Source of the DNA: an uncultured Clostridia bacterium | GTDB lineage: Bacteria > Bacillota > Clostridia > Oscillospirales > Oscillospiraceae | Direction: 5' to 3' | Assembly: GCA_945948535.1 (NCBI GenBank) | Contig: CAMFBN010000002.1 | Span: forward strand, 240 to 64,239 | Length of the DNA: 64,000 nucleotides | The notes under the pieces: generated by a model | The model's input: the letters and a program-made list of their open reading frames with translations, nothing else | Databases searched by the model: none | Told to the model about the DNA's origin: nothing | Program-made: the position numbers and the translations under genes | Shown: in pieces, positions 9,430-40,396 of the stretch | Position numbering within the stretch: the first letter of the stretch is position 1 | How the letters are laid out: each line of letters opens with the position of its first letter

Positions 9430-9615
9430 TAAATTGTTCTTTAGTTGACAATTGACAGTTGACAATTTAGGAGTCCCTGCGGGACAATTAAAAAATGTCA
9501 TAACTGGCAGGTTCCTTTGGGAAACCCACTGGTATTTCGTGCTTGTAGTTTATTTTAATTCATCCCGAAGGGATACCACAATTGTCAATTGTTCATTGTT
9601 AATTGTCAATTCAAT
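9430..9615 (+). repeat. Heptamer-arm element, long type, copy 1
   Basis: (TTGACAA)n left arm, hairpins 9473-9485 and 9562-9574, inverted (TTGTCAA)n right arm; near-identical to 18221-18412 and 40203-40396. Confidence 0.92.
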
Positions 9616-9629
9616 TCTTGTTTACCGGA

Positions 9630-10946
9630 TTATTTGGTTTCCTCAAACAATTTGGGAATTGCGTAGGTGGTCAGTTCCTCCACCACTTCCTTTAAGTCGA
9701 TGGTGGGGAAGGTGCCGTTCTGGTACAGAATTCTGCCCCGAACCATGGTCATGGCCACATCGCCGCCCTTGGCGGACCACAGAAGGCCGTTCAGCACATT
9801 GTGGCAGGGCATCAGGTGGGGAGCGGTGAAATCCACGAGAACAATGTCCGCGTCCATGCCCACCTGCAGCATCCCGCATTCCTTGCTCCTGCCCTGGGCC
9901 TGCGCGCCGGTGACGGTGGCCATCATCAGGGCGGCGGAAGCGGGAAGGGTGGCGCTGTCGCCGCTTTCCTTCCGGGCGTCCATGGCGGCAAAGCGCATGA
10001 CCTCGAACAGATCCAGGTTGCCGCACTCGATAGCGCCGCCGGTGCCGAGCGCCACATTCATGCCGGCCTTTACGGACTCCAGAATGGGGGTGGTAGCCTC
10101 CCCGGATTTGTAGGCGGCAACGGGAGTCGCCACGGCAGTAACGTGCTTTTTCCCTAACAGTTTACGCTCATGGGGCTCCAGATATGTACAGCTGGCGGCG
10201 GTGGTGGGGACGCAGAACAGCCTGTGGCAGTCCAGAAGCTCCCCGGGGCCCATGCCGGTGCGCTCCAGACAGGATTCCACCTCGCCCTTTGTCTCTGCCA
10301 GATGCAGCTGCATTCCGATGCCTTTCTCGAAGGCGTAGCCGGCAAGCCCTTCCCAGAGACGGTAGTTGCTGGTGTACTCGGCGTAGATGCCCGCGTCGAT
10401 TTTGATGCGCCCCTCGTCAAAGCCGTTCCACCGGTCAACCACCCGGACAAGCTCCTGACACTGCTCGTCGGTTTCAAAATCGAATTCCTCGTTGGGGTCG
10501 ATGAAGCGGTAGCTGGAAAGGGCCAGATTGGCCTTGATGCCGGACTGGGCCACGGCCTCGGCGGTGGCGTTGGGGTAATAGTACAGGTCGGAAACCGAGG
10601 TCACGCCAAAACGCAGACATTCGGCGATGGCGAGAAGCGCGGCGGATTTCGCACTGCGGGAGTCCATTTTGGCTTCCTTTTGGAGCAATGCCTGCAGGGC
10701 TTCCGTGTTGCCTAAATCATCGGTGTAACTGCGTAGTCCGGCGGTGGCCAGGTGGGTGTGGCAGTTCACAAGACCGGGAATCGCCACCATGCCGGTGCCG
10801 TCAATGATGGTTTTTGGCGGCTGGGCCGGGGCGGATTTGCTGATGGAGACGATTTTGCCGCCGTCGATGCCGATGTACGCACCGAAAATGACCTCCATCC
10901 GGGGATTCATGGTCACGGCGGTGACGTTGGAGATTAAAGTGTCCAA
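9630..10946 (-). CDS. Amidohydrolase family (MtaD-like), with altered metal-ligand motifs
   Basis: PGLVNCHTH, HLAET, ADIVLVD; TTG start after AGGAAAGG; LGTGG instead of the usual LGTDG. Confidence 0.85.
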   Translation of the reverse strand: MDTLISNVTAVTMNPRMEVIFGAYIGIDGGKIVSISKSAPAQPPKTIIDGTGMVAIPGLVNCHTHLATAGLRSYTDDLGNTEALQALLQKEAKMDSRSAKSAALLAIAECLRFGVTSVSDLYYYPNATAEAVAQSGIKANLALSSYRFIDPNEEFDFETDEQCQELVRVVDRWNGFDEGRIKIDAGIYAEYTSNYRLWEGLAGYAFEKGIGMQLHLAETKGEVESCLERTGMGPGELLDCHRLFCVPTTAASCTYLEPHERKLLGKKHVTAVATPVAAYKSGEATTPILESVKAGMNVALGTGGAIECGNLDLFEVMRFAAMDARKESGDSATLPASAALMMATVTGAQAQGRSKECGMLQVGMDADIVLVDFTAPHLMPCHNVLNGLLWSAKGGDVAMTMVRGRILYQNGTFPTIDLKEVVEELTTYAIPKLFEETK

Positions 10947-10966
10947 AGATAACAACCTTTCCTAAA

Positions 10967-11030
10967 AAATGCAGAATGCAGGACAAATTGTACGGAACAA
11001 TTCTGCATTCATCATTTATCATTTTGCATT
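10967..11030. repeat. Heptamer-arm element, minimal copy overlapping the hemZ 3' end
   Basis: AATGCAGAATGCAG arm, small hairpin, then TTCTGCATT CATCATT TATCATT TTGCATT; same arms as 31880-32000. Confidence 0.7.
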
Positions 11031-12442
11031 AGCAGGAACAGTTCCTGTTTCTGCTGAAGCACGGAGTCGATCATTTCGATGTACTGTTCCGGGAATTTGG
11101 GGTTATGGAAGCGCTGAAGGGTGCCGTCGGGCAGATTGACCTTGTTCATCCCGCCGCCGCCCAGAGAGACGATGGTGTGCAGCTCCTCCATCATATAAAT
11201 ATTGTACAGGCAGTCCAGGCCATCCCGGCTCCAGCCTACGTTTTCAAAGCTGCCGGACATATATTTCTGCCGGTACAGGTAGTAGGGCTTGTAGCCGAGA
11301 CTGCGCAGCGTCAGATTGGCGTAGTCCACCATCCGGGCCACCTCCTCTGCCGTGGACAGGCCCTCCCGTTTTTCGAACAAATCCGCTCCTTTTTTCAGCG
11401 CCAGAGTGTGGACGGTGATGTTGGCGGGATTCAGGCCGGCAACCGCGTCCAGAGAGCGGCGGAAGCCGTCAAAATCATCCTGAGGCAGTCCGGCAATCAA
11501 ATCCATGTTGATGGCGGCGAAGCCCGCGTCAACGGCTTCCCGGTAGGCCCGAAGCACATCCTCGGCTTTATGGGGCCGTCCGCAGGCATGGAGCACATGG
11601 TCTTCCATGGTCTGGGGGTTGATGCTCATGCGGTCGGCACCGTGCTCCCGAATGGCCCGGAGCTTTTCCGCGTCCAGTGTGTCCGGGCGTCCGCCCTCCA
11701 CGGTAAATTCGATGCAGCGGTCAAAATTAAAGGAGGAACGCAGAGTGTCCAGCAGCCGAATCATTTGGGGCGTAGACAGGGTAGTGGGCGTACCGCCGCC
11801 GATGTACAGGGTGCGAAGATGCCTGCCGCTTTTTTCCATAAGTTCTGCCGTAACCCGGATTTCCTGCTCCAATGCGGCGAGATACGGCTCCAAAAGCTCG
11901 GTTTTCTTGCCGATGGTGCGGCTGACAAAGCTGCAATAGGTGCACCGGGTGGGGCAGAAGGGAATGCCTACATAGACAGACACATCCTCCGGCTCCATGC
12001 GCTTCACGGCATTCACGGTGGACAGCGAGCAGTCTACCGCCAGCTTCCGCCGATCCTCCGTCACAAAGTATACATCCTTCATGAGCTTTTCCGCGGATTT
12101 CGGCGTGCCGCCCTCCAGAAGGTGCTTTGTGGTGATTTTGGTGGGCCGAACACCTGCCAGCGCGCCCCATGCCGGAACCTTTGGCAGCAGCTGAACGGCG
12201 GCAAGGTAGTAGCTTTGCTGTAAAATCCGGCGGCGTAAGCGCACGGTTTCCTCCGATGCTTTCAGGCGGCGGGAAGAGTGGACGGTCTTCCCGTTCAGGG
12301 TGATTCTCGCGGTGGCGGTAAGGTATGTTCCTCCCCGATGGAGGGCGGATTCTGCCGTGCCCTCCGGGTTATCCGGGAACAGCGCCATTTGCAGCTGCTC
12401 CACGGCGTAACGGTCGTCATGACCGATGAGTGTCAAGTTCAT
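11012..12442 (-). CDS. hemZ: Radical SAM protein, HemZ family
   Basis: WGALAGVRPTK, YVGIPFCPTRCTYCSF, YIGGGTPT, KPYYLYRQK. Confidence 0.92.
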   Translation of the reverse strand: MNLTLIGHDDRYAVEQLQMALFPDNPEGTAESALHRGGTYLTATARITLNGKTVHSSRRLKASEETVRLRRRILQQSYYLAAVQLLPKVPAWGALAGVRPTKITTKHLLEGGTPKSAEKLMKDVYFVTEDRRKLAVDCSLSTVNAVKRMEPEDVSVYVGIPFCPTRCTYCSFVSRTIGKKTELLEPYLAALEQEIRVTAELMEKSGRHLRTLYIGGGTPTTLSTPQMIRLLDTLRSSFNFDRCIEFTVEGGRPDTLDAEKLRAIREHGADRMSINPQTMEDHVLHACGRPHKAEDVLRAYREAVDAGFAAINMDLIAGLPQDDFDGFRRSLDAVAGLNPANITVHTLALKKGADLFEKREGLSTAEEVARMVDYANLTLRSLGYKPYYLYRQKYMSGSFENVGWSRDGLDCLYNIYMMEELHTIVSLGGGGMNKVNLPDGTLQRFHNPKFPEQYIEMIDSVLQQKQELFLLMQNDK

Positions 12443-12481
12443 AGCGGTTCCTCGTATGCGGCAGGGCAAGCCCACAGAGTG

Positions 12482-13072
12482 TCAGTGCAGATAAGGGTTA
12501 TACTTCTTTTCACTTTCCAGCATGGTGGATTCTCCGTGACCGGGAAGCACCCACAGGTTGGCTTCGATTTCAGACAGCCGCTTCAGGGAGGCGCGCATCT
12601 GCTCCCAGCTGCCGCCGGGCAGATCGGTGCGTCCGCAGCTTCCCGCGAACAGGGTATCGCCGGAGAACAGCGTGTTTTCCGTCAGCAGACACACGGAGCC
12701 GGGGGTATGGCCCGGGGTTTGCAGGACAGAGATATCCAGCCCCGCAAAGTGCAGCTCTGTCCCTTCAGCGTAGGTATTCGTGTAGTAGAGCGGCCCGGCG
12801 GTGAGATTCGTTGGCAGAGCCAAGTCGTCCGCGCACAGCCAGACCTGACAGCCGGTGTCTGCCGCCAGATCCCGGACAGCCCCCACGTGGTCAAAATGCC
12901 CGTGGGTCAGCAAAATGGCTTCCAACGTCAGCCCCAGCTCGCTGAGCTTATCCACAATGGTATCCGCCTCATAGCCGGGGTCGATGACGCAGCAGAAAGG
13001 GCTTTTTTCGTCGTGGATGATGTAGCAGCTGACCTGATAGGCCCCCAAAGTCAGGGCGTGAACCTTTAACAT
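12482..13072 (-). CDS. MBL-fold metallo-hydrolase (glyoxalase II-like)
   Basis: THGHFDH, TPGHTPGS, FSGDTLF, PGHG. Confidence 0.92.
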   Translation of the reverse strand: MLKVHALTLGAYQVSCYIIHDEKSPFCCVIDPGYEADTIVDKLSELGLTLEAILLTHGHFDHVGAVRDLAADTGCQVWLCADDLALPTNLTAGPLYYTNTYAEGTELHFAGLDISVLQTPGHTPGSVCLLTENTLFSGDTLFAGSCGRTDLPGGSWEQMRASLKRLSEIEANLWVLPGHGESTMLESEKKYNPYLH

Positions 13073-13082
13073 GGGTTTCTCC

Positions 13083-13547
13083 TTATCTTCTCGGCGTGTC
13101 CATCAGCTGCTCGGTGTCCAGAATCAGGGTCACTGGGCCATCGTTGATGGATTCCACCTTCATGTCCGCGCCGAACCGTCCGTGCTGGGGCGGATAGCCC
13201 AACTCAGCGCAGTCCGACAGGAATTTTTCGTACAAAGCGCTACCCAGCTCCGGATTTGCCGCGTCGGTGAAGCTGGGGCGGCGGCCCTTGCGGCAATTGC
13301 CGTAAAGGGTGAACTGGCTGACAATGAGCACCTCGCCGTTTACAGCGTCCAGTCCCAGATTCATTTTTCCGTTTTCGTCCTCGAAAACCCGCAGTCCCAG
13401 AGCCTTTTCCGCCAGATACCGGCATTCTTTTTCCGTATCGTTGGGGCCGACCCCCAGCAGAATCAGAAAGCCCTGACCGATTTTTCCGACGATTTCGCCG
13501 TCAATGGCGACAGAGGCGGATTTGACTCTTGTGAGTACAGCTCGCAT
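13083..13547 (-). CDS. dtd: D-aminoacyl-tRNA deacylase
   Basis: MRAVLTRV...SQFTLY...GRRPSF...NDGPVT. Confidence 0.96.
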   Translation of the reverse strand: MRAVLTRVKSASVAIDGEIVGKIGQGFLILLGVGPNDTEKECRYLAEKALGLRVFEDENGKMNLGLDAVNGEVLIVSQFTLYGNCRKGRRPSFTDAANPELGSALYEKFLSDCAELGYPPQHGRFGADMKVESINDGPVTLILDTEQLMDTPRR

Positions 13548-13551
13548 GGCG

Positions 13552-13779
13552 TCACTCCTCGTCCTCTGCTTCGTCTGCGTCAGACGGAAGCGCAACGCCG
13601 TTGCCGGAATTGTTGCTGCCGTTGTTGCTGCCGATGCAGACGTTCTTTTTGGGGCTGAGCATGATACCTGTCACAATGCCGGCAAGGGTGCAGACTGCCA
13701 GTCCCAGCACCAGCTCCCGCTGATTGACGATAATTCTGCGATCCAGAGACTTCCAGCAGGCTTTGATTTTTTCTGTCAT
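13552..13779 (-). CDS. Small single-TM hypothetical protein
   Basis: Fills the relA-dtd gap exactly; hydrophobic segment followed by SPKK...GSNNGSNN and an acidic tail. Confidence 0.7.
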   Translation of the reverse strand: MTEKIKACWKSLDRRIIVNQRELVLGLAVCTLAGIVTGIMLSPKKNVCIGSNNGSNNSGNGVALPSDADEAEDEE

Positions 13780-13792
13780 AACCCATTCCTCC

Positions 13793-15985
13793 TTAATTCT
13801 GACCTCTCCGGGAATTGGTCACATCCCGGATATTCAGCAGTTTTTTGCGGATGGAATCCAGCTCCGCCACATTTTTGACCTCAAAGCGAATGATGATGGT
13901 GCTGCGTCCGCCGGGAAGGTCCTTGGCGTTCAGCTCCTTGACCCGAACCCGGGCGGTGGTCATCACCGTTGCCACGTCCAGCACCAGACCGTCCCGCGTG
14001 ATGCAGTCCAGCTCCAGCGTGGTCTCGAAGGGCTGCTCCTCCTGGGTGGCCCAGCGCACCCGCACCCAGCGGGCGGCCTGCCGGGGGTCGTCCCGGTTCG
14101 CGGCGTTGGGGCAGTCGGCCCGGTGGATGCTGACGCCGAAGCCCTTGGTGATGAAGCCCACGATGGCGTCGCCGGGAACGGGGGTGCAGCACTTGGCGAA
14201 TTTAATCATGCAGGAGTCGATGTCCTCCACGATGACGCCGTTGACCGCGTGGCGGTTGAGAAGGTCTGCGTCGGAGTCGGGGCGCACCCGCAGGGGGCTG
14301 ACGGGCAGCTTCTCGGCGGCCTGGGCCTTCACCGCCTTGTTCACATCGTCCCGAATGCGGCCCACGGCCTTGGTGGCGGTAAGGCCGCCGTAGCCGATGG
14401 CGGCGTACATATCGTCCCAGCTGTCAAAGGCCAGCTTTTTCAGCAGGTGGGGTTCCAGCTCCGGATCGGCGACGGCGGTCAGCGGCAGGCCCACCCGCTT
14501 CATTTCCGCCTCGAAGGAGGCCCGGCCGTGGAGAATATTCTCCTCCCGCTTTTCCTTCTTGAACCACTGCTTGATCTTGGTGCGGGCCTGATTGGACTTG
14601 CAGATGGTCAGCCAGTCCCGGCTGGGGCCCTTGGCGGATTTGGAGGTCAGCACCTCCACAATGTCGCCGTTGCGCAGCTTGGTGTCGATGTTGGCGATGC
14701 GGTTGTTGACCTTTGCGCCGATCATGGCGTTGCCCACGCCGGAGTGGATGGCATAGGCAAAGTCGATGGGGGTGGAACCGGCGGGCAGGGAGACGATGCG
14801 GCCCTTGGGGGTGTAGACGAAGACCTCGTCGTCGAACATATCGATCTTCATATCCTGCACGAATTCCTCGGCGTCGGAATCCTGCTGGGTTTCCAGCAAT
14901 CGGCGAACCCATTCAAAGTCCTTCTCCGTGCCGGCGCCGGTGCCCTGCTTGTACTTCCAGTGGGCGGCGATGCCGTATTCGGCGGTTTCGTGCATTTCCC
15001 AGGTGCGAATCTGCACCTCAAAGGGGATGCCCTGAGAGCCGATAACGGTGGTGTGCAGAGACTGGTACATATTGGGCTTGGGGGTGGAGATATAGTCCTT
15101 GAAACGTCCGGGCACCAGATTGAACAGGTCGTGGACATGGCCCAGCACATTGTAGCAGTCGGGAATGGAATCCACGATTACCCGGAAGGCGTAGATGTCA
15201 TACAGCTCGTCGATGGTCTTGCCCTGAGACTGCATCTTGCGGTAGATGGAGTAGACGTGCTTAATGCGTCCATAGGTCTTGTTGTGGATGCCCACGGAGG
15301 ACAGGCGCCGGGTGATTTTGTCCTGAATGGTGCGCATGAACACCTCGTCCTGTTCCTTGTGGGCGTTCAGGTAATTCATAATCTCGTTGTAGGAATCCGG
15401 CGCCAGATACCGCAGGGCGATATCCTCCAGCTCCCACTTGATCTTCTGCATACCTAACCGGTGGGCCAGAGGGGCGTAGATATCCATGGTCTCCCGGCAC
15501 TTTTTGATCTGCTTTTCCGGGGTCTGGTACTGCATGGTGCGCATATTGTGAAGCCGGTCGGCAATTTTGATGAGCACCACCCGGATGTCCTTGGACATGG
15601 CCATGAACATTTTCCGCAGATTCTCCATCTGCTCCTGCTCGGAGGTGGAGAAATTGGCCCGGGTCAGCTTGGTGACACCCTCCACCAGCTCCGCTACCGT
15701 GGTACCGAAGATCTTCTCGATTTCCTCGTGGGAGGCGTCGGTATCCTCAATGCAGTCGTGGAGCAGCGCGCCCAGCACGGCGTCCTGGTCCAGACCCATT
15801 TCCGCTACGATTTGGGCCACAGCAAGAGGGTGGATGATGTAGGGGGAGCCGTCCTTGCGCTTTTGCAGCTTGTGCTTAACGTTTGCGTAGTCCACCGCCT
15901 TGTCAATGAGCTGCATATCCGCGCCGGGCATCCGCTTCAAAATCGCGGCGTGCATGGCGGCATAGTGTTCTTCAAAGGTTTCCAT
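13793..15985 (-). CDS. relA: Bifunctional (p)ppGpp synthetase/hydrolase
   Basis: HD motif LLHDCIED, KIADRLHNMRT, YQSLHT, EVQIRT, TGS, KCCTP, C-terminal ACT. Confidence 0.97.
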   Translation of the reverse strand: METFEEHYAAMHAAILKRMPGADMQLIDKAVDYANVKHKLQKRKDGSPYIIHPLAVAQIVAEMGLDQDAVLGALLHDCIEDTDASHEEIEKIFGTTVAELVEGVTKLTRANFSTSEQEQMENLRKMFMAMSKDIRVVLIKIADRLHNMRTMQYQTPEKQIKKCRETMDIYAPLAHRLGMQKIKWELEDIALRYLAPDSYNEIMNYLNAHKEQDEVFMRTIQDKITRRLSSVGIHNKTYGRIKHVYSIYRKMQSQGKTIDELYDIYAFRVIVDSIPDCYNVLGHVHDLFNLVPGRFKDYISTPKPNMYQSLHTTVIGSQGIPFEVQIRTWEMHETAEYGIAAHWKYKQGTGAGTEKDFEWVRRLLETQQDSDAEEFVQDMKIDMFDDEVFVYTPKGRIVSLPAGSTPIDFAYAIHSGVGNAMIGAKVNNRIANIDTKLRNGDIVEVLTSKSAKGPSRDWLTICKSNQARTKIKQWFKKEKREENILHGRASFEAEMKRVGLPLTAVADPELEPHLLKKLAFDSWDDMYAAIGYGGLTATKAVGRIRDDVNKAVKAQAAEKLPVSPLRVRPDSDADLLNRHAVNGVIVEDIDSCMIKFAKCCTPVPGDAIVGFITKGFGVSIHRADCPNAANRDDPRQAARWVRVRWATQEEQPFETTLELDCITRDGLVLDVATVMTTARVRVKELNAKDLPGGRSTIIIRFEVKNVAELDSIRKKLLNIRDVTNSRRGQN

Positions 15986-15992
15986 TTTCTTT

Positions 15993-18050
15993 TCAGCTCT
16001 CTTTCGCGCGCAGCAGGCGCTGCATGGTTTGGCTGGTGGCCAGGTCAGCCTTTTGGGTTCCGGGGGTCAGCCGGATGGAAATGTACTTGTGCAGCCGTGT
16101 GATTTCCAGCAGCCCCACATCCCGGAAAATATCCAGACAGATGCTCAGCTGCCCTAAGCTCATGGGCTTGCCGGTCCAGCGGACAATCTTGCGGCACAGG
16201 CACAGGGGAGATTCCTGAATGTCCGTGCCCACAGAGGCAAGATACCGCCACACCATCGCCAGCATGGCCCGGTCAGGGAGCGCCGCGGCAGCTTCCTTCG
16301 ACAGGTGCCGTCCCTTCTGAAGGGCATGGTAGAGGGAGGTCTCGGGGGAGCACTCCGCCCGGCAGCTGGGCCGGATGTCCAGCACGTTCATCTGCACGGT
16401 GCGCTCACCGCGGTATTCGTTCACCTGGGGGTTGAAGGCCACATCCACCACATCGCCCGCCGCGATGGAGACGCTCTGGGGCGTGGCGGAGAAGTAGATC
16501 GCGTTAAAGACCTGCCGCCCGACCCGCAGACGCAGGCGCATATGCCGCCCGCCGCCCACCATGCTGATGCGCTCGATGGTCAGATTGTTCATCGCCAGCA
16601 CCGGCTTGGGGCAGCCGTTGCCGCAAGGCTCCAGTACCCGCAGAGAATCGATGCCCGAAATGGTCAGCAGCTCCGGCGGAATCGCGCAGTCGATGTCCAA
16701 GCTGGTTCGGGGCACGTCGTCCTGATAGAAATTTGCCGCCAGCGCGCAGACCTGTTTGCGAAATTCGGGAATATTCTCCCGGCTGATGGTAAAGCCCGCC
16801 GCCAGCTCGTGCCCGCCGTAGCTTTCAAGAAGCGGGGACAGGGCGGTAAGGGAAGTGAAGAGATTGAAGCCGCCGTGACTGCGGGAGCTGGCCTTGCCGT
16901 GGTCGCCGTCCAGGCAGATGAGGAAGGCAGGGCAGGCGTATTCCTCCGCGATGCGGCTGGCGACGATGCCCACCACGCCCTGATGCCAGCTTTCGTCCGC
17001 CAAAACGATTGCCTCCGGGGGCTTGCCCCCCGGCAGCATGGCCACGGCCTGCTGGTAGATTTCCGATTCCACCGCCTGCCGCTGCCGGTTCAGATTGCAC
17101 AGGGCTTTGGCCACCTCCGAGGCCCGCTGGGGGTCGTCGGTGAGAAACAGCTCCAGAGCCAGATCGATCTGGCCCATCCGTCCCGCGGCGTTGATGCGGG
17201 GAGCCAGCATGAAGCCGATGGAGGAGGAATTGACCGTGGCGGGGTCACAGCCGCACTCTTCCATCAGGGCGGCAATGCCGGGACGGCGGGTGTGGGCCAG
17301 AGACTCCAGCCCCCGGGCAGCAAAGACCCGGTTTTCGCCCTGTAAAGGCATCACGTCCGCCACGGTACCAAGACATACCATGTCGGCGTAATCCGAAAGA
17401 ACCGCATCCTGATCGCCGCAGAGAGCGGCGGCCAGCTTGAAAGCGATGCCCACGCCGGAGAGATTCTTGTGAGGGTAACCGCCGTCGGGCCGGTGGGGGT
17501 CCACCACGGCCACGGCCTGGGGCAGGGTGTCCTTGCATTCGTGATGGTCGGTGATGACCAGCTCCATGCCCAGCTCCCGGCACAGCTTGGCCTCCTCAAC
17601 GGCGGTAATGCCGCAGTCCACGGTGACAATGAGCTTGACCTCCTCCGCGTGGAGCTGGTTCAGGGCGATGGCATTCAGGCCGTAGCCCTCCTCCAGCCGC
17701 CCGGGGATGTAGCTGACGCAATCCGCTCCGTGGCGGCGCAGAAAATCCGTCAGAAGACAGGTGGCGGTAATACCGTCCACATCATAGTCGCCGAAAACGG
17801 CAATTTTTTCCTTTTTTTCAATAGCCAGCGCCACCCGCCCGGCGGCAAGGTCCATATCCGTCATCAGAAACGGGTCGAGCAGCGGAGCGTTACAATCCAG
17901 ATACTTTTTTGCCTGGCTGCCGTTTTCGATTCCCCGGCAGGCCAGCACCATAGCGGACAGCGGCGCGTAGCCCGCGCCCACCAGCGCGTTCACAGCCCCC
18001 ATATCCGGCTGCTTCACATTCCAAATTCCGTATTTCACCTTAGCACACAT
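15993..18050 (-). CDS. recJ: Single-stranded DNA exonuclease RecJ
   Basis: GDYDVDG, ITDHHE, GTVADV, PRINAAGR, GGHELAAG, PCGNGCPKP; exact start uncertain (18050 or GTG 18038). Confidence 0.96.
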   Translation of the reverse strand: MCAKVKYGIWNVKQPDMGAVNALVGAGYAPLSAMVLACRGIENGSQAKKYLDCNAPLLDPFLMTDMDLAAGRVALAIEKKEKIAVFGDYDVDGITATCLLTDFLRRHGADCVSYIPGRLEEGYGLNAIALNQLHAEEVKLIVTVDCGITAVEEAKLCRELGMELVITDHHECKDTLPQAVAVVDPHRPDGGYPHKNLSGVGIAFKLAAALCGDQDAVLSDYADMVCLGTVADVMPLQGENRVFAARGLESLAHTRRPGIAALMEECGCDPATVNSSSIGFMLAPRINAAGRMGQIDLALELFLTDDPQRASEVAKALCNLNRQRQAVESEIYQQAVAMLPGGKPPEAIVLADESWHQGVVGIVASRIAEEYACPAFLICLDGDHGKASSRSHGGFNLFTSLTALSPLLESYGGHELAAGFTISRENIPEFRKQVCALAANFYQDDVPRTSLDIDCAIPPELLTISGIDSLRVLEPCGNGCPKPVLAMNNLTIERISMVGGGRHMRLRLRVGRQVFNAIYFSATPQSVSIAAGDVVDVAFNPQVNEYRGERTVQMNVLDIRPSCRAECSPETSLYHALQKGRHLSKEAAAALPDRAMLAMVWRYLASVGTDIQESPLCLCRKIVRWTGKPMSLGQLSICLDIFRDVGLLEITRLHKYISIRLTPGTQKADLATSQTMQRLLRAKES

Positions 18051-18125
18051 CCAGTAATAAGCATTTTCCTTACATTATAGCAAAAAGAAGCCGGATGCAC
18101 AATAGGAAGATGGAATTTTCTTTTG

Positions 18126-18216
18126 GTCCGCAGGGCGGACAGCCAATGCGTGCACGGCGTTGTGTATTCGTTACACCATTGGGTACCGCTCGGTATCGCT
18201 TTCTGGTGTTGTTAAT
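18126..18216. repeat. REP-like element C, copy 2
   Basis: GTCCGC-AGG-GCGGAC hairpin plus GTTACACCATTGGG...CTCGGTATCGCTTTCTGG as at 9332-9426. Confidence 0.75.
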
Positions 18217-18220
18217 TAAC

Positions 18221-18412
18221 TATATTGTCCTTTAGTTGACAATTGACAATTGACAGTTGACAATTTAGGAGTCCCTGCGGGACAATTAAAAAATGTCATA
18301 ACTGGCGGTTCCTTTGGAAAAACCGCAGGTATTTCGTACTTGTAGTTTATTTTAATTCATCCCGAAGGGATACCACAATTGTCAATTGTTCATTGTCAAT
18401 TGTCAATTCAAT
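18221..18412 (+). repeat. Heptamer-arm element, long type, copy 2
   Basis: Hairpins 18271-18283 and 18359-18371; one more left-arm heptamer than copy 1. Confidence 0.92.
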
Positions 18413-18428
18413 TTTGCTTTTGCTGATT

Positions 18429-19478
18429 TTAAATCGATCTGTTATCCTCCCGCCGAAGCTGCAAAGCGGCAACGGTGAGCAGGGGAGCCAGGATCATCCC
18501 GCCCACGCCCCAGAGCCGGTAGCCGATATACAGCGCGAGAAGTGTCACCAGCGGGTCGAGGCCCAGATGCTTGCCCAGCAGCTTCGGTTCCAGCATGGAG
18601 CGGGTCATGGCGGCGGCAACGTAGATGCCGAGAATGCCCAGCGCCCGGGGCGTGTCCCCCTGCAAAAAGCACACCACGCTCCAGGGCACCAGCACGGTGC
18701 CGGTGCCGAGGACCGGTAGAGCATCCACCAGCGCAATCAGCACTGCCCACAGTAGGCTGCTGGGAATCCGCAGCAGGGTCAGCCCTGCCGCCACGATGCC
18801 GAAGGTCACGCTCATGAGCTTGCACTGGGCGAGAAACCATTTGCCCAGCACCCGGCGCATCCGGCGGGCGGTTTCCAGCGCGGAGCGCAGCTGCTGCCTG
18901 GGCACCCGCCGAATCAGCCACCGGCGTATCTGGGGGAGCCTTGCGGAGATCAGGAAGGCGGAAAGAATGGCGGTGCCGAGGCCCAGCGCACTGTCCGGCA
19001 CATGGCTGAGCAGGCCCCCCGCCAGTCCCAGCAGCCAGGCGGTGACTTTTCCCAGCAGGGTGCTTCCATCGGCAAGCAGCGTCCTCACATTCTCCTCCAG
19101 CAGGGGCCGGATTCCCCGGGGGGCGTGGGAGGCCAGCTCCAGCAGCCGGTTCTGCGCCAGCGCCAGTCCGGAACGGGCGGTACTCTCCAAATCCGGTAAA
19201 ACGCCCGCGAGGTTTTTCAGCTGCCGCAGGGCGAAGGCGCACAGAATCAGCAGGAGCATAGCCAGGAAGCAGAAGGCCATGCTGACGCCGATGGCGGTGC
19301 TCACCGCCCGGGGCGTGTGAACCTTCTGGCTCAGGAATCGGACCATTGGCTCCGCCGCCAGGGCCAGCAGGGCGCCCAGCAGGAAGGGGGACAGCAGCGG
19401 CAGCAGAAATTTCGCGGCCAGCCAGACGGCGGCGAAAACTGCCAGTACAGAGAAAACGGTTTTGCGGGGGGAACCCAT
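18429..19478 (-). CDS. ytvI: Sporulation integral membrane protein YtvI (AI-2E family)
   Basis: LSPFLLG...AEPMVRFL; DALPVLGTGTVLVPW; LEPKLLG...GLDPL...G..GMILAP. Confidence 0.9.
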   Translation of the reverse strand: MGSPRKTVFSVLAVFAAVWLAAKFLLPLLSPFLLGALLALAAEPMVRFLSQKVHTPRAVSTAIGVSMAFCFLAMLLLILCAFALRQLKNLAGVLPDLESTARSGLALAQNRLLELASHAPRGIRPLLEENVRTLLADGSTLLGKVTAWLLGLAGGLLSHVPDSALGLGTAILSAFLISARLPQIRRWLIRRVPRQQLRSALETARRMRRVLGKWFLAQCKLMSVTFGIVAAGLTLLRIPSSLLWAVLIALVDALPVLGTGTVLVPWSVVCFLQGDTPRALGILGIYVAAAMTRSMLEPKLLGKHLGLDPLVTLLALYIGYRLWGVGGMILAPLLTVAALQLRREDNRSI

Positions 19479-19603
19479 GCCGGAATGCTCCTTTCGTATG
19501 GTAAGATAGGGGTTGCATTTTCTAAAAAGTATGCTACAATACATTATTGGAGAACATATGTTGCTCCATTGCGTACAAAAGCAGAAATTTCAGGAGGTAG
19601 GAC

Positions 19604-20044
19604 ATGTCAACCAAACCCAAATATTATATAGTGGAAGCGTCCGCGCTGCCGGAAGTATTTCTGAAGGTGGCGGAGGCCAAGCGCCTGCTTTCCACGGGCG
19701 AGGCGGCGACCGTCAACGAGGCGACCCGCATGACCGACATCAGCCGCAGTGCCTTCTATAAATATCGTGATGCCGTTCTGCCCTTTCAGAATATGATGAC
19801 CGGGCGGATTATCACCTTCCAGCTGCTGCTCCACGATGAGCCGGGACTGCTGTCCCAGATTCTGGGGGTGTTCGCAGTGGCGAAGGCCAATATTATCACC
19901 ATCAACTCCATCGTGCCCACCAACGGCACAGCGGTGGTCACCATTTCCGCGGAGACCATGGATCTGACGGTGTCGCTGGAGGAGCTTTTGCAGCAGCTTT
20001 CCGCCACCCACGGCGTGGTCAAGGCGGAGGTTTTGGCAGGTTAG
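19604..20044 (+). CDS. ACT-domain protein UPF0735 (ThrR/PheB-like)
   Basis: YYIVEASALPEVFLKV...ISRSAFYKYRD...HDEPGLLS...NIITINS. Confidence 0.9.
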   Translation: MSTKPKYYIVEASALPEVFLKVAEAKRLLSTGEAATVNEATRMTDISRSAFYKYRDAVLPFQNMMTGRIITFQLLLHDEPGLLSQILGVFAVAKANIITINSIVPTNGTAVVTISAETMDLTVSLEELLQQLSATHGVVKAEVLAG

Positions 20045-20075
20045 TCCGCAGGGCGGACGAACAATGCGTTACGGG
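20044..20075. repeat. Partial REP-like element C, copy 3
   Basis: GTCCGCAGGGCGGAC identical to 18126, followed by AATGCGTTACG as at 9352. Confidence 0.6.
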
Positions 20076-20154
20076 CACTGCGCAGATAACGCACATCCTT
20101 AGGGCCCCCCGAACGAAATGTCATCAACGAAAGCGTTAGGGTACTGTCTACCAC

Positions 20155-20266
20155 TGTCATTGCGAGGAGCGCAGCGACGTGGCAATCCGTACGCCTCTTG
20201 GTTCGGGTACATTATGAAAAGGGGAACGGATTGCCACACCAGTCTGATGACTGGTTCGCAATGACA
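20155..20266. repeat. Nested palindromic REP-like element
   Basis: TGTCATTGCGA/TCGCAATGACA outer IR; GTGGCAATCCGT/ACGGATTGCCAC inner IR; ACCAGTC-tgat-GACTGGT hairpin. Confidence 0.8.
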
Positions 20267-20376
20267 TGATTTTTTCGGCAGTTTCAGGGGAGGGTCATTG
20301 ACCCTCCCGCTTTTTACGTCATTCCTTCGTCACGTTCTGTGCCCAACTGACATAGAATGTGCCGGGAGGGATGGCA

Positions 20377-21114
20377 ATGCTGTATGTGCAGAAATACGGA
20401 GGAACCTCCCTGCAGGATGCCGAGCGCATCCGTACCGCTGCCCGGCGGTCGGCGGAGCTGGCCCGGCAGGGGCACGGGGTGGTCGTGGTGGTTTCCGCAC
20501 AGGGGGATACCACCGATGAGATGATTGAAAAAGCCGCTCAGATCAACAGGCGCCGGGCGGCAAGGGAAATGGATGCGTATCTCGCGGCAGGGGAGCAGAT
20601 GTCCGCTGGCCTCATGGCGATGGCCATCGGCGCGCTGGGCTGTCCCGCGGTGAGCCTGACGGGCTGGCAGGCGGGAATCCATACCGACGGCAACCACGGC
20701 GGCGCCCGCATTCTGGAGGTGGACACCACCCGCGTCCGGCGGGAGCTAGGACAGGGAAAGATCGTTGTTGTGGCAGGCTTTCAGGGCGTTGATCCGGAGG
20801 GGGATATCACCACTCTGGGCCGGGGCGGTTCGGATACCACGGCGGTGGCGCTGGCAGCCTGGCTGAAGGCGGATATCTGCCAGATTTTCACGGATGTAGA
20901 CGGGGTCTACGACCGGGATCCCAGGCTGTTCCCGGATGCCCGCCGGTTCCGGCAGATTCGCTATGATACCATGATGGCGCTGGTGGAAAACGGAGCCCAG
21001 GTGCTCCATGACCGCAGCGTGGAGCTGGCAAGGCAGCACGGTATCCGGCTGGAGGTTCTGGCGGCAGCTACTGGCGACCCGGGAACCATTGTTGGGGAGT
21101 TGGAATCATTCTAA
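20377..21114 (+). CDS. Aspartate kinase, catalytic domain only (no ACT)
   Basis: VQKYGGTS, VVSAQGDTTD, AGFQG, TLGRGGSDTTA, TDVDGVY; stops at 245 aa. Confidence 0.9.
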   Translation: MLYVQKYGGTSLQDAERIRTAARRSAELARQGHGVVVVVSAQGDTTDEMIEKAAQINRRRAAREMDAYLAAGEQMSAGLMAMAIGALGCPAVSLTGWQAGIHTDGNHGGARILEVDTTRVRRELGQGKIVVVAGFQGVDPEGDITTLGRGGSDTTAVALAAWLKADICQIFTDVDGVYDRDPRLFPDARRFRQIRYDTMMALVENGAQVLHDRSVELARQHGIRLEVLAAATGDPGTIVGELESF

Positions 21115-21147
21115 CCGGGTTGGGCATAAGATATTCCATGGCAGTGT

Positions 21148-21260: not shown

Positions 21261-21270
21261 TAAAAAGTTC

Positions 21271-30683: not shown

Positions 30684-31883
30684 ATGAAGTATATCGTAGT
30701 ATTGGGCGACGGAATGTCGGATGAACCCATCGAGGCTCTCGGCGGAAAGACTCCGCTGGAATACGCCAGCACCCCCGCCATGGACGCGCTGGCCTGCGGC
30801 GGGCAGATGGGCATGGTGCAGAACGTGCCGGAGGGAATGCACCCGGGCAGCGAGGTTGCCAACCTGTCCGTCATGGGCTATGACCCGAAGACGGACTTTA
30901 CCGGACGATCTCCCCTGGAAGCCCTCAGCGTGGGCGTGAAGATGGAGCCGGATGACATTATTTTCCGCTGCAACGTGGTGACTCTGACGGAAAAGGAACC
31001 TTACCCGGAAAAGACCATCCTTGACCACAGCTCCGGCGAGATTTCCACGGAGGAAGCTGACAAGCTGATGGACGCCATCCGGGAACAGTTTAATAATGAG
31101 GAATTTCAGTTCTACACCGGCACCAGCTACCGCCACATCATGGTATGGAAGCACGGCCGTCTTGCAAAACTGGAGCCGCCCCACGACCACCTGACTCAGG
31201 TCATCGGCCCCTACCTTCCGGAGGAGCTGGTGCTGCGCAGCTTCATGGAGCGCAGCTTCGACATTCTCAACAACCATCCCGTGAACCTCAGACGGGCAGC
31301 AGAGGGCAAGAACAAGGCCAACTCCCTGTGGTACTGGGGCGCGGGCACGAAACCCAGCCTTGGCAGCTTTACGGAGAAAACCGGCCTGAAGGGCGCCATG
31401 ATCTCCGCCGTTGACCTGCTCAAGGGCATCGCCGTGGGCGCGGGCATGAAAATCTGCCATGTAGAGGGCGCCACCGGGTCTCTGGACACCAACTGGGAGG
31501 GCAAGGCCCAGGCCGCCATCGACGCGCTGCTAAAAGACGGCTGCGACTTCGCCTACATCCACGTGGAGGCCCCCGACGAAATGGGCCATCAGGGTCTTGT
31601 GAAGGAAAAGGTGCAGTCCATTGAGTATCTGGACACCCGGGTCATCGGCCCCATCATGCAGGCCATGGAGGAAGCGGGGGAGGACTACCGGATGCTGGTG
31701 CTGCCGGATCATCCCACCCCTATCCGCATCCGCACCCACAGCTCTGACCCGGTGCCCTATGTGCTCTATGACAGCACCCGGCAGACGAAGAAGAAAGCCC
31801 GCTACACCGAAGCGGAAGCCAAAGCCACCGGCACCTTTGTGCCCCACGGCTACGTACTTCTGAAGCAGCTGCTTCAGGAATGA
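30684..31883 (+). CDS. apgM: Cofactor-independent phosphoglycerate mutase family (ApgM-like)
   Basis: GDGMSD, PGSEVANLS, HVEAPDEMGH, LPDHPTP. Confidence 0.88.
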   Translation: MKYIVVLGDGMSDEPIEALGGKTPLEYASTPAMDALACGGQMGMVQNVPEGMHPGSEVANLSVMGYDPKTDFTGRSPLEALSVGVKMEPDDIIFRCNVVTLTEKEPYPEKTILDHSSGEISTEEADKLMDAIREQFNNEEFQFYTGTSYRHIMVWKHGRLAKLEPPHDHLTQVIGPYLPEELVLRSFMERSFDILNNHPVNLRRAAEGKNKANSLWYWGAGTKPSLGSFTEKTGLKGAMISAVDLLKGIAVGAGMKICHVEGATGSLDTNWEGKAQAAIDALLKDGCDFAYIHVEAPDEMGHQGLVKEKVQSIEYLDTRVIGPIMQAMEEAGEDYRMLVLPDHPTPIRIRTHSSDPVPYVLYDSTRQTKKKARYTEAEAKATGTFVPHGYVLLKQLLQE

Positions 31884-32000
31884 ATGCAAAATGCAGAATG
31901 ATGAATGCAAAAGGAAGGTATTTCCTTCGGAAATGGTTATAAATTGTCCGCGAAGCGGACACCTCAATTCTGCATTTTGCATTTTGCATTCTGCATTCCC
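31880..32000 (-). repeat. Heptamer-arm element, short type
   Basis: (AATGCAR)n arm, hairpins 31920-31934 and 31946-31960, (TGCATT)n inverted arm. Confidence 0.85.
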
Positions 32001-32023
32001 ATTGAATTTTGGAGGTAAGAATT

Positions 32024-33103
32024 GTGAATCGCGTTTATAACTTTTCCGCCGGCCCGGCGGTGCTGCCGGAGAGCGTTTTGAAAGAGGCCGCTGAGGAAAT
32101 GCTGGACTACCGGGGAACCGGTATGTCCGTCATGGAAATGAGCCACCGCTCCAAGGCCTACCAGACCATCATCGATGAGGCGGAGGCCGATCTGCGCACC
32201 CTGATGGGGATTCCCGACAACTACAAGGTGCTGTTTATGCAGGGCGGCGCTTCCCAGCAGTTCGCCATGATTCCCATGAACCTGATGAAGAACAAGGTTG
32301 CCGACTATATCATCACCGGTCAGTGGGCCAAGAAGGCTTATCAGGAGGCCCAGATGTACGGGCAGGCCAATGCTGTGGCGTCCTCCGCCGACAAGACCTT
32401 CTCCTATATTCCCGACTGCTCTGACCTGCCCATCAGCGAGAACGCGGATTATGTCTATATCTGCGAGAACAACACAATTTATGGCACCAAGTTCTGGAAC
32501 CTGCCCAATACCAAGGGTAAGGATTTGGTGGCGGATGTTTCCAGCTGCTTCCTCAGTGAGCCGGTGGACGTAACCAAGTACGGTATGCTCTACGGCGGCG
32601 CGCAGAAGAATGTAGGCCCTGCCGGTGTGGTGATCGCCATTATCCGGGAAGACCTGATTACGGAAGATGTGCTCCCCGGCACCCCCACCATGCTGCGCTA
32701 CAAGACCCACGCCGACCACGGCTCCATGTACAATACGCCCCCTGCCTACGGCATCTACATCTGCGGCAAGGTGTTCAAGTGGCTGCTGCGTAACGGCGGA
32801 TTGGAGGAAATGAAGGCTTATAACGAAAAGAAAGCCGCCATTCTCTACGATTATCTGGACAGTAGCAAATTGTTCCACGGCACCGTGGTGAAGAAGGATC
32901 GCTCCCTGATGAACGTGCCCTTCGTCACCGGGGACGCAGATATGGACGCGAAATTTGTGGGGGCCGCAACGGAAGCCGGCTTTGTGAACCTGAAGGGCCA
33001 CCGCACCGTGGGTGGAATGCGGGCCAGTATCTACAATGCCATGCCCATGGAGGGCGTGGAAAAGCTGGTGGCCTTCATGGAGCACTACGAAAAAACGGTA
33101 TAA
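32024..33103 (+). CDS. serC: Phosphoserine aminotransferase
   Basis: NFSAGPAVLP, MEMSHRS, GAQKNVGPAGV, GHRTVGGMRAS. Confidence 0.97.
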   Translation: MNRVYNFSAGPAVLPESVLKEAAEEMLDYRGTGMSVMEMSHRSKAYQTIIDEAEADLRTLMGIPDNYKVLFMQGGASQQFAMIPMNLMKNKVADYIITGQWAKKAYQEAQMYGQANAVASSADKTFSYIPDCSDLPISENADYVYICENNTIYGTKFWNLPNTKGKDLVADVSSCFLSEPVDVTKYGMLYGGAQKNVGPAGVVIAIIREDLITEDVLPGTPTMLRYKTHADHGSMYNTPPAYGIYICGKVFKWLLRNGGLEEMKAYNEKKAAILYDYLDSSKLFHGTVVKKDRSLMNVPFVTGDADMDAKFVGAATEAGFVNLKGHRTVGGMRASIYNAMPMEGVEKLVAFMEHYEKTV

Positions 33104-39198: not shown

Positions 39199-39918
39199 TC
39201 AGGAACGAATACCAAACAGAGGCCGGGCAACCCGTTTGTAGAGCAGCAGCGTCAGCACGGAAACCATGGCACCCTTCACCACGTTCAGGGGAGCCACGCA
39301 CATGACCACGAAGGTGGTCACGTTGTGGATGCTGGGATGAATGGCAGCGCCCATGCCGATGATGGCATCCAGGGGCATTCCGTACAGCTCCGCAAACTTG
39401 GGCAGCAGGTACACAGCATTGAAGGCGGTGCCGAACACGGACATGCACACGGTGCCTAAAATCAGGCCGATGATGGCGCTGTGCTTGCTTTTATGCACAT
39501 GATACCAGATGGCAGCGGGCAGGACGAAGGAGCAGCCCACCACGAAATTGGCAAGATCGCCCACGAAAGCGGTGGAGGTGCCCTTGAGCAGCAGCTTCAG
39601 CAGAATCTTGATGCCCTCGCAGACCACCGTGGCGGAGGGCCCCAGATAGAAGCCGCACAGCAGCACCGGCAATTCGGAAAAGTCCAGCTTGTAGAAGCCG
39701 GGGGCGAGGAAGGGAATGGCAAAATCCAGAACGTGCAGCACCGTGGCGATGGCGGCGCAGATGCCGATGATGCTGACCCGGCGGGCGGGGGTTACCTTAC
39801 GCCGTTCCGGCAGGAAATGCTCCGCCAGCTTGGCAAGCAAAGCAAGTCCCACCACAAGGGCGATGCAGGTCATAACAAAAGTGAGATTTTCCGCGATTTG
39901 TGTCCAAAGAGTAGCCAT
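39199..39918 (-). CDS. ribU: ECF transporter S component, riboflavin (RibU-like)
   Basis: KLDFSELP...GFYLGP...GDLANF; lies under an FMN riboswitch. Confidence 0.88.
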   Translation of the reverse strand: MATLWTQIAENLTFVMTCIALVVGLALLAKLAEHFLPERRKVTPARRVSIIGICAAIATVLHVLDFAIPFLAPGFYKLDFSELPVLLCGFYLGPSATVVCEGIKILLKLLLKGTSTAFVGDLANFVVGCSFVLPAAIWYHVHKSKHSAIIGLILGTVCMSVFGTAFNAVYLLPKFAELYGMPLDAIIGMGAAIHPSIHNVTTFVVMCVAPLNVVKGAMVSVLTLLLYKRVARPLFGIRS

Positions 39919-40002
39919 AATTACCGTCTCCTGTGCAAAAAAATGCGCCCCGGGAATGGACCCAGGGCGTGAAAATAAACGCAAGTATGATCTTTCCTTG
40001 CG

Positions 40003-40119
40003 TATCTTCTTCCATCCAGACTATACTGTCGGTATCGGAGTTTCACCGATTCGGCACGTTTTCACGCGCTCGCGGACTTTACCGCCGGTGGGGAATTGCG
40101 CCCCGCCCTGAAGATACTG
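40003..40119 (-). ncRNA. FMN riboswitch (RFN element)
   Basis: TATCTTCAGGGCGGGGCGCAATTCCCCACCGGCGGTAAAGTCCGCGAG...GACAGTATAGTCTGGATGGAAGAAG. Confidence 0.96.
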
Positions 40120-40202
40120 TTCAGTTCCCCTACACCATAGCACGTATGCAGTGGCTTGTCAAGGGGCAGATGACGTGGTATACTAAAAAAACGCTAAAGG
40201 AG

Positions 40203-40396
40203 AATTGAATTGACAATTGACAATGAACAATTGACAATTGTGGTATCCCTTCGGGATGAATTAAAATAAACTACAAGCACGAAATACCTGCGGTTTTTCC
40301 ATAGGAACCTGCCAGTTATGACATTTTTTAATTGTCCCGCAGGGACTCCTAAATTGTCAACCGTCAATTGTCAATTGTCAACTAAAGGACAATTTA
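40203..40396 (-). repeat. Heptamer-arm element, long type, copy 3 (inverted)
   Basis: Reverse complement of copies 1 and 2; hairpins 40245-40257 and 40334-40346. Confidence 0.92.

Follow-up and report, generated by a model that had tools for sequence, protein, structure and literature searches.

We analysed a window of 64,000 nt from an uncultured Clostridia bacterium of the pig gut (Oscillospirales; Oscillospiraceae; assembly GCA_945948535.1, contig CAMFBN010000002.1, positions 240-64,239) and found six copies of an intergenic element whose arms, in all six, are inverted arrays of heptamer repeats. In five of the six copies the arms enclose a mirror-symmetric core of two hairpins, which the minimal copy lacks. 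These copies probably belong to a family of small non-autonomous fold-back mobile elements in Faecousia, other Oscillospiraceae and their phages; the amidohydrolase of the window has 91% identical orthologues named Faecousia sp., Oscillospiraceae. The mobile unit consists of a heptamer array, GG(A/T) followed by hairpin 1, an AT-rich spacer in which extra hairpin inserts are possible, hairpin 2 followed by (A/T)ACC, and an inverted heptamer array. Some lineages add outer terminal inverted repeats with small hairpins of their own. The unit is multi-copy and is inserted whole between genes without a target duplication of more than 2-3 bases. It turns over fast between close strains, and its stems are kept by compensating changes. 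Arms and cores are both interchangeable, and the fold is what persists.

An initial annotation of this DNA had described a dispersed non-autonomous family with covarying structure, and both a larger alignment and empty alleles support that description. We searched for further copies, taking one genome per species, with a strict pattern in which the hairpin 1 loop and the interiors of the stems were free. At least 119 loci matched, nearly all of them in Oscillospiraceae metagenome-assembled genomes (MAGs) from goat, yak, deer, cattle, sheep, buffalo and human gut. Two MAGs carry at least 17-22 exact matches each, and many matches lie at contig ends. A covariance model gave 187 matches in 661 kb, a count that includes reverse-strand matches to the same copies. 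Read depth over the elements in pig-gut metagenomes was 10-40x that of the flanks. Of 129 unique copies, 122 were fully complementary at the free positions inside hairpin 1, where more than 10 different stems occurred; the interior of hairpin 2 was CC/GG in 115 copies, TC/GA in 14 and GC/GC in 2. The few matches outside Oscillospiraceae (a methanogen, Nostoc, Citrobacter) were not palindromic at the free positions and served as a built-in null. Chance or assembly artefact was rejected as a source of the family by the E-values of the model, by copies in many independent assemblies and by these non-palindromic chance matches.

The fate of the core covariation in a larger alignment had been named beforehand as a refuting test of the family. 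We aligned 27 copies that had been found by profile search only, together with one constructed row (a long copy of the window minus its insert) that is misaligned in hairpin 1 and can only weaken the structure. In this alignment 94.9% of cells were paired, and 8 of 12 pairs showed double changes (31 cells). None of 500 shuffles was as good, and slid controls were 32-57% paired. Since this pairing and these double changes occur in copies that were not selected by the pattern, the core covariation holds in the larger alignment.

Architecture of the copies and of their arms

The initial annotation had placed copies at six sites of the window. All six were confirmed with refined coordinates, as three long, two short and one minimal copy of ~70-175 bases (up to ~200 elsewhere):

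9445-9612, + strand: long copy 1, with left arm (TTGACAA)n at 9445-9467 and right arm (TTGTCAA-type) at 9579-9612
9473-9485 and 9562-9574, + strand: core of long copy 1, hairpin 1 GTCCC-TGC-GGGAC and hairpin 2 ATCCC-GAA-GGGAT
9487-9550: insert of long copy 1, 64 nt, with a third hairpin inside
18236-18409, + strand: long copy 2, with left arm 18236-18265, hairpin 1 18271-18283, hairpin 2 18359-18371 and right arm 18376-18409
40207-40381, - strand: long copy 3 (inverted), with arms 40208-40240 and 40352-40381, hairpin 2 40245-40257 and hairpin 1 40334-40346
~21140-21260, + strand: short copy 1, with left arm of the AGTGTGG/AATGTGG class at 21143-21174 and right arm of the TTTGCAT class at 21228-21260
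21180-21194 and 21206-21220, + strand: core of short copy 1, hairpin 1 GTCCGC-TTC-GCGGAC and hairpin 2 ATTTCC-GAA-GGAAAT
~31878-31999, - strand: short copy 2, with AATGCAR arms at 31883-31912 and 31966-31999
31920-31934 and 31946-31960, - strand: core of short copy 2 (reverse complement), hairpin 2 and hairpin 1 (with GCGAAGC)
~10964-11031, - strand: minimal copy, with AATGCAR arms around GGACAAATTGTACGGAACAATT and no GC hairpins

The three long copies are mutually 91-94% identical over 102-190 nt (190 nt at 93%; the others at 94% and 91%). Their parts follow one order: a TTGACAA-type array, GGAG, hairpin 1, AATT, a 64-nt AT-rich insert with a third hairpin, TCAT, hairpin 2, ACC and the inverted array. 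We set the boundaries of long copy 1 against the orthologous spacers of related strains, of which L162 has another repeat between the same flanks, and L165 and L166 are empty with a 32-nt spacer. Of the ~190 bp that the annotation had assigned to the long copies, the outermost 12-15 nt (GATAAATTGTYCTTTAG, as at 9430-9444) are part of an adjacent module, which a strain without the element has as well. The short type follows the long-type plan minus the insert, with longer stems and with arms of other heptamer classes. Conversely, the long type is the short type plus 64 nt; pig-gut contigs jump exactly from 9486 to 9551, which indicates that the insert is a separable module. The shared motifs and compensatory stems described in the annotation are present as claimed (GTCCC-TGC-GGGAC vs GTCCGC-TTC-GCGGAC; ATCCC-GAA-GGGAT vs ATTTCC-GAA-GGAAAT), and GCGAAGC lies at 31950 (+) and 21184 (-). 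The arms of the minimal copy enclose the remnant GGACAAATTG.

R1, a covariance model built on the short core, gave scores of 72.0 and 71.2 bits (E ~1e-17) for the two short copies, partial matches to the three long copies and no further cored copy in the 64-kb window. R1 also matched the reverse strand of each short copy (43.5 and 28.7 bits), which makes the core a mirror pair built from a single hairpin unit; each half, on its own strand, reads GG(A/T)-stem-loop-stem. Because the core hairpins are mirror images, as in a REP (repetitive extragenic palindromic) doublet, either strand can fold into a long arm stem with a two-hairpin junction. The predicted fold shows long arm stems topped by the two hairpins, or alternatively, for the long type, a single extended hairpin. 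The RNA fold of long copy 1 had a free energy of -54.3 kcal/mol (z score -5.5), and that of short copy 2 (31878-32002) reached about -48 to -50 kcal/mol with z ~-6 on both strands; over these folds z ranged from -5.5 to -6.1. For short copy 1 the values were -37.6 kcal/mol (z -2.3) on the + strand and -21.8 kcal/mol (z -0.4) on the - strand. Since its arms pair only via G.U on the + (sense) strand, short copy 1 is probably a chimera.

The loops vary more than the annotation had proposed. Its rule of one GNA triloop per strand holds in the window; across the wider family it fails, and we rejected GNA triloops as a universal rule for any loop other than that of hairpin 2. The hairpin 2 loop was G-N-A in 17 of 22 unselected copies (77%; GAA 8, GCA 6, GGA 2, GTA 1). 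The hairpin 1 loop was AAA in 54 copies, TTT in 27 and TTC in 26, so that AAA or TTT accounted for 63% and TNC, which is GNA on the opposite strand, for just 31%. Given this predominance of AAA and TTT in hairpin 1, one GNA loop per strand is a trait of the window subfamilies and not of the whole family.

The arms are diverse as well. The same core carries more than 15 heptamer classes (e.g. AATTGAC, AATGGAT, AATGCAA, AGTTGAA, AGTGAAT, AATTACA, AATGCTA); the right arm belongs to the class complementary to the left, and both arms switch class together. We counted 591 heptamer arrays in 1.26 Mb of sampled sequence, with a strict 7-nt period and with 559 of them (95%) outside called genes. Neighbouring arrays formed 198 pairs, 158 inverted vs 24 direct; the inverted pairs comprised 118 with the core and 40 with no core, a single hairpin, another two-hairpin core or a nested repeat. 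A metagenome scan with the long-type hairpin 1 showed that the inter-hairpin spacer holds differing inserts across contigs, and it also returned single-hairpin forms. A conserved mini-open reading frame in the long-type insert was rejected, as the inserts differ and frames are not kept. In a goat/yak subfamily the unit is wrapped in extra left and right hairpins and in 16-nt terminal inverted repeats, AAATTSCCRTTTWTCG.

The strict periodicity and intergenic location of the arrays also suit a different explanation, namely that the heptamers are protein-binding sites (iteron-like, -35-like decoys, or targets of cold-shock/S1-type heptamer binders) and the element a protein-loading site. Core-less arrays just upstream of phage genes and the promoter-like TTGACA-17-GACAAT produced by four TTGACAA units speak for it as well. 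However, more than 15 unrelated heptamer classes occur on the same core, which no single sequence-specific binder would fit, and conservation extends to the hairpins and to the pairing between the two arms, not to the sequence of the unit. We consider this explanation highly unlikely. The promoter-like matches (TTGACA, 17-18 nt, GACAAT) arise at 9459-9488, 18236-18286, 18378-18406 and 9581-9609 from four tandem TTGACAA units and point inward from both arms; other arm classes are without them. The core-less arrays are runs of AATTGAC and its kin (AATTCAC, AATTCAT, AATTTCT, AATTAGA) in IMG/VR contigs L005, L013, L019, L022, L026, L032, L035 and L038. The GC content of these contigs varies widely (28-55%), and they are therefore probably not all Oscillospiraceae phages.

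In addition, we observed the exact 20-mer GGAGTCCCTGCGGGACAATT in metagenome contigs L172, L177, L179, L183 and L173, beside runs of TTTTCAA/TTTTCAT or AAAATGT heptamers, and also within tandem TTCTCCGAAGGAGTCCC units. These contigs look unrelated to Faecousia, and some have long CT-rich tracts. The hairpin module may travel more widely than the heptamer-armed Oscillospiraceae family. Rfam gave no match at gathering score on the elements; a first scan at E<=1 returned nothing and a second returned two chance-level matches (E ~0.5), one of them overlapping an element. Cultured-phage and plasmid collections held no match except one arm-like heptamer run in a cyanobacterial plasmid, AP018309.1 of Aulosira laxa (127366-127403, 38 nt, AATGCAR-like), which is annotated within a 2OG-Fe(II) oxygenase gene and is the sole match in the plasmid collection. 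A full-text literature search returned no account of such elements in Oscillospiraceae and no paper with their sequences.

Filled and empty sites in related strains

We fetched orthologous loci via the amidohydrolase gene, obtaining relatives whose flanking proteins are 91-97% identical to those of the window. Empty alleles were found at several orthologous sites, as had been sought. The amidohydrolase-flippase spacer that holds long copy 1 measures 318 nt in the window vs 32 nt, empty, in L165 and L166 (91% identical flanking protein). The AI-2E/recJ spacer that holds long copy 2 measures 378 nt vs 83 nt, empty, in L165; in L162 it contains another repeat family. Between the same flanks, L161 and L162 (93-97% identical) have unrelated palindromic repeats in exactly these positions. 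In L162 another repeat stands in place of the minimal copy, which is absent in L165 and L106 and present in L161 with one unit fewer per arm. This last observation prompted the idea of arm-to-arm templating, which was rejected, since arm lengths were uncorrelated (r -0.03, 86 copies). At the site of short copy 2, the window has 186 nt (31853-32038) and a related strain found in run X14 has 62 nt. At the infC site of short copy 1, L165 shares the right arm, its core is inverted and its left arm is AATGCAG, an arrangement that fits recombination between family members or flipping between inverted arms.

The clearest event lies behind dtd. Directly after the dtd TAA, L161 has a 119-nt AATGCAR-armed copy, and the window (13073-13085), L162 and L165 are empty, with the 10-nt spacer GGAGAAACCC. 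As only L161 is filled, the insertion dates to one lineage, and the comparison of filled and empty sites indicates that the arms form both ends of the inserted unit. Three further filled/empty pairs, from goat and yak genomes, showed that the outer inverted repeats there belong to the inserted unit. Such comparisons had been proposed as a check for target duplication, and no direct repeat of more than 2-3 nt was found at the junctions in these four pairs. A 13-nt direct repeat around the long copies (AATTGTCCTTTAG/AATTCTCCTTTAG) was rejected as a target duplication, being part of a neighbouring module shared with a strain that has another repeat there. Metagenome contigs break at the repeats near 21140 and 18236.

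If the copies were classical cut-and-paste miniature inverted-repeat transposable elements (MITEs), derived from an insertion sequence with a DDE transposase and shared terminal inverted repeats, then filled sites should carry a target duplication, and its absence in four comparisons disfavours this origin. The termini are moreover wholly different between subfamilies while the internal hairpins are conserved, and no longer copy with the same ends occurred in 1.26 Mb. The arms are nevertheless inverted repeats in all copies, the goat/yak subfamily has its 16-nt terminal inverted repeats, and a size of 120-200 nt, high copy number and intergenic location are all MITE-like. We judge a DDE origin improbable. 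Integron attC sites were rejected. The window copies contain no RYYYAAC/GTTRRRY core sites, the sole integrase is tRNA-linked and phage-type (5288-6685), and the flanking genes are syntenic core genes (recJ, relA, infC, dtd), which argues against attC sites.

Other repeats lie at or beside these sites. A second module, M2, lies at 9290-9444, 18090-18235 and partly 20041-20100, and adjoins two of the long copies. It contains ...GGTCCGCAGGGCGGAC..AATGCGT..GTTACACCATTGGGCACCGCTCGGTATCGCTTTCTGGT..TGTTAATTA.GATAAATTG, has no Rfam match, reaches a metagenome depth of 10-40x the flanks and recurs in L162 next to a different repeat. A palindromic repeat of ~115 nt with ends GTCATTGCGAGG...TTCGCAATGAC lies at 20150-20265 and at ~6010-6130 of L161, where it occupies the site of long copy 1; it represents another abundant family, with a depth of ~10x the flanks. 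A third repeat family, with ends like GCCTTCCCC(N4)GGGGAAGGTG, is found in L162 (11340-11560 and 2560-2800) and in phage contigs L017, L018 and L024. In a 93%-identical strain it stands at two orthologous sites in place of the heptamer-armed element, and in the phage contigs it is nested inside heptamer-armed copies.

Placement, transcripts and a possible RNA role

All six window copies lie between co-directional genes, 0-29 nt past the upstream stop codon, in agreement with the annotation, which had placed them directly after stop codons. In two of them the stop codon is inside an arm (TGA 11012-11014 in the minimal copy, 31881-31883 in short copy 2). The arm of the minimal copy contains the last six codons and TGA of a radical SAM gene, and the first arm unit of short copy 2 contains the stop codon of a phosphoglycerate mutase gene. 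The neighbours are housekeeping genes (flippase, amidohydrolase, radical SAM enzyme, recJ, AI-2E transporter, amino-acid kinase, infC, phosphoglycerate mutase, aminotransferase). Long copy 3 sits between the stop codon of a DUF4830 gene (40403-40405) and the promoter and flavin mononucleotide (FMN) riboswitch of an energy-coupling factor (ECF) transporter gene. We observed this riboswitch at 40000-40119 (-, 119 bits), upstream of the riboflavin-type ECF-transporter S component (39199-39984, -); a TTGACA/TATGGT promoter at ~40150-40180 serves the ECF gene, and long copy 3 is just upstream of it.

Four metatranscriptome runs, examined as assembled contigs, yielded contigs spanning 20965-21317, that is the 3' end of the kinase gene, the whole of short copy 1 and ~60 nt beyond. 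The element is accordingly present in transcript assemblies (DNA carry-over possible). As it lies inside these contigs and folds into long hairpins, the structures in mRNA that the annotation had suggested are plausible. IMG/VR contigs show the same architecture. One of them, L017, is a phage structural module (portal, scaffold, major head, tape measure, tail) with four copies in its intergenic spaces.

These observations raise the question of whether the elements are primarily selected RNA structures, acting as operon punctuation that stabilises the upstream message, invites RNase III cutting or uncouples neighbours, with mobility only as their means of delivery. Co-assembly with flanking coding sequence in the four runs would fit such a role, as would the short distance to stop codons in the window and the family-wide medians of 38 nt from stop to arm vs 61 nt to the next start; the latter trend, however, is not significant (p 0.13). 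Short copy 1 pairs on the sense strand only, the four copies in the phage flank its portal, scaffold, capsid and tail genes, and a conserved unpaired AAGGAG/AAGGTG beside hairpin 1 is Shine-Dalgarno-like. Among 73 co-directional copies, the sense-strand RNA fold was the more stable in 47 vs 26 (mean difference -2.2 kcal/mol, p 0.006), and arm oppositions on the sense strand were G.T in 206 cases vs A.C in 167. This sense-strand bias is modest and the copies are not independent; its source could be RNA pairing, lagging-strand-template pairing or strand-biased deamination, and the small G.U excess is confounded by such deamination and by replication direction.

The distribution of the copies points the other way. 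Of 126 unique family copies, 73 were in co-directional, 12 in convergent and 11 in divergent spacers, vs 556/61/79 for the background at the same loci. We therefore rejected a preference for, or avoidance of, any intergenic type, as the distribution matches the background. The core points with transcription in only 33 of the 73 co-directional copies, and orientation bias relative to transcription was rejected on this count; a selected RNA role has to accommodate this random orientation. It also has to accommodate relatives 91% identical in which the same genes are element-free, and other strains in which unrelated repeats occupy the same spots. We regard a primarily selected RNA role as possible, though rather unlikely.

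A narrower version of an RNA function, intrinsic and possibly bidirectional terminators that happen to be repeated, would account for the order of A-rich arm, GC hairpins and T-rich arm, and for the goat-subfamily hairpin 1 (GTCGCC-AAA-GGCGAC) followed by ATTTTTAAAT. Yet none of the four copies in 9000-22000 was picked up by a terminator scan, the RNA contigs read through short copy 1, and U-tracts do not abut the stems in most types. There is no orientation bias, and 11 copies lie in divergent, promoter-side spacers. Terminators are a very improbable explanation of the family.

The search for a mover and relation to known families

We prefer to read the copies as mobile elements, and several observations weigh against this. 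No HUH-motif open reading frame (HUH plus upstream motif) was found in the 1.26 Mb of sampled loci by a crude regular expression on fragments, and apart from a tRNA-linked integrase and a TnpV remnant the window has no transposases. The same 1.26 Mb held no cargo-bearing copy, and 36 of 36 paired element ends were 80-183 nt apart. The junctions show no shared target motif (flanks of 28 goat-type and 5 Faecousia copies; four filled/empty pairs). Hairpin 1 loops are mostly AAA or TTT, whereas a mini-hairpin signal in DNA would be expected to have GNA. Mobility is deduced from presence and absence between lineages 3-10% apart, with no insertion or excision caught in the act. Finally, selfish spread and a selected RNA role are equally compatible with the modest sense-strand G.U excess and with the density of copies in a compact phage operon.

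The annotation had linked the family to HUH or RAYT enzymes and had anticipated larger copies with cargo between the same arms. The enzyme link is unsupported, with no HUH-motif open reading frame by the same heuristic, no conserved target tetranucleotide and no cargo-bearing copy, and larger copies did not appear in the 1.26 Mb. Inverted arrays 250-370 nt apart in phage contigs were considered as larger copies and rejected, as they merely flank ordinary small genes. Pfam searches on the genes of the window returned no HUH transposase.

The window does contain other mobile DNA. A low-GC (46-51%) integrated element at 1-6968 encodes an IstB/DnaC-like ATPase, helix-turn-helix regulators and a tyrosine integrase (5288-6685). 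It adjoins two tRNA genes (6785-6857 and 6895-6968, - strand), and L161 has a different integrase there. A cluster of small genes at 56066-57208 (49% GC), with DUF6462 and a homologue of the transposon-encoded protein TnpV, is likely the remnant of a clostridial mobilisable transposon. Separately, a 142-nt direct repeat with 75% identity (45264-45405 and 46531-46672, 1267 nt apart) lies in coding sequence and may reflect a paralogous or internally repeated gene.

Among known systems, REPINs can form a single hairpin or a 'clover' of two hairpins as alternative folds (PMC3116915). They resemble the present elements in having two small imperfect palindromes, inverted around a spacer, that form a long hairpin or a two-hairpin clover with common compensatory changes, in occurring in tens to hundreds of copies at random in extragenic space, and in their mosaic, modular make-up. 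The present elements differ in belonging to Clostridia and being also phage-borne. Their hairpins are central and their pairing arms are multi-class heptamer arrays, whereas the conserved 16-mers of REPINs are terminal; their spacer accepts inserts of 10-80 nt; and no RAYT or other Y1 gene turned up (regular-expression heuristic, 1.26 Mb of fragments). ERIC/IRU, Correia/NEMIS and RUP/BOX elements are fixed sequences, and Correia and RUP have defined target duplications and terminal repeats. Like them, the present elements are intergenic, 100-200 nt long, co-transcribed as long RNA hairpins, variable in length through internal insertions and present or absent between strains. Unlike them, they have variable heptamer ends and no duplication was seen, and their conservation is limited to two short hairpins and a few unpaired bases.

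Intergenic heptamer direct repeats include the cyanobacterial STRR. The TAACTGA heptamers of Beggiatoaceae, Cyanobacteria and Bacteroidetes mostly form single direct arrays, usually of one heptamer, just upstream of the start codons of open reading frames, with one inverted pair reported in 170 sets (PMC4679880). Both share with our arrays 7-nt tandem units nearly confined to intergenic DNA and often a few bases from start or stop codons, related heptamers mixed within an array, and a patchy phylogenetic distribution that suggests horizontal spread. In our family, by contrast, inverted array pairs enclose conserved hairpins (118 of 198 neighbouring pairs) and insert as one unit. IS200/IS605 insertion sequences have ends with two different subterminal hairpins on one strand and a fixed 4-5 nt target on one side. 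Their palindrome-associated non-autonomous derivatives are alike in lacking a target duplication, in conserving hairpins instead of terminal repeats and in plausible recognition as single-stranded DNA; the present elements, however, have central, mirror-symmetric hairpins and showed no common target. A Porphyromonas gingivalis MITE is reported to contain a minisatellite (PMC4596501). It is likewise a small non-autonomous element with tandem repeats of variable copy number, in which the tandem repeat is internal cargo between ordinary inverted ends, whereas here tandem repeats form the inverted ends.

The elements are best read as a new REPIN/MITE-like non-autonomous mobile family of hitherto undescribed design, and no named family fits. 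We file them with the REPIN/MITE kind but in no named family because the target duplication that marks MITEs was not found and RAYT genes were sought by regular expression on fragments only. Copying or moving in trans would be carried out by an enzyme that recognises the folded single strand and not a fixed terminal sequence, and this enzyme might be HUH/RAYT-like or another structure-specific enzyme. Arm diversity would come from point mutation, from slippage and from family members recombining through the conserved core. The fold may be tolerated or mildly useful in mRNA, which would shape the copies that survive. A bolder proposal, which we offer tentatively and hold unlikely, is that these elements represent a new class of mobile DNA defined by structure. 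Recognition and propagation would act on the fold of heptamer-zipper arms and mirror triloop hairpins and not on a sequence, the mover would be from an enzyme family not yet tied to transposition (not DDE, possibly not Y1 HUH), and the fold would double as orientation-independent mRNA punctuation that phages use in structural operons.

Faecousia and its relatives are abundant and almost uncultured in the animal and human gut, and their repeats, so far undescribed, break assemblies. The family offers a structural marker with which strains can be typed and phages assigned to hosts. It is also a natural experiment in which a fold-back shape is kept while every arm sequence changes, and it gives a concrete lead towards the enzyme that mobilises hairpin DNA in Clostridia. 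Should the RNA fold affect adjacent genes, the rapid gain, loss and exchange of elements at the same intergenic spots would make close strains differ in expression.

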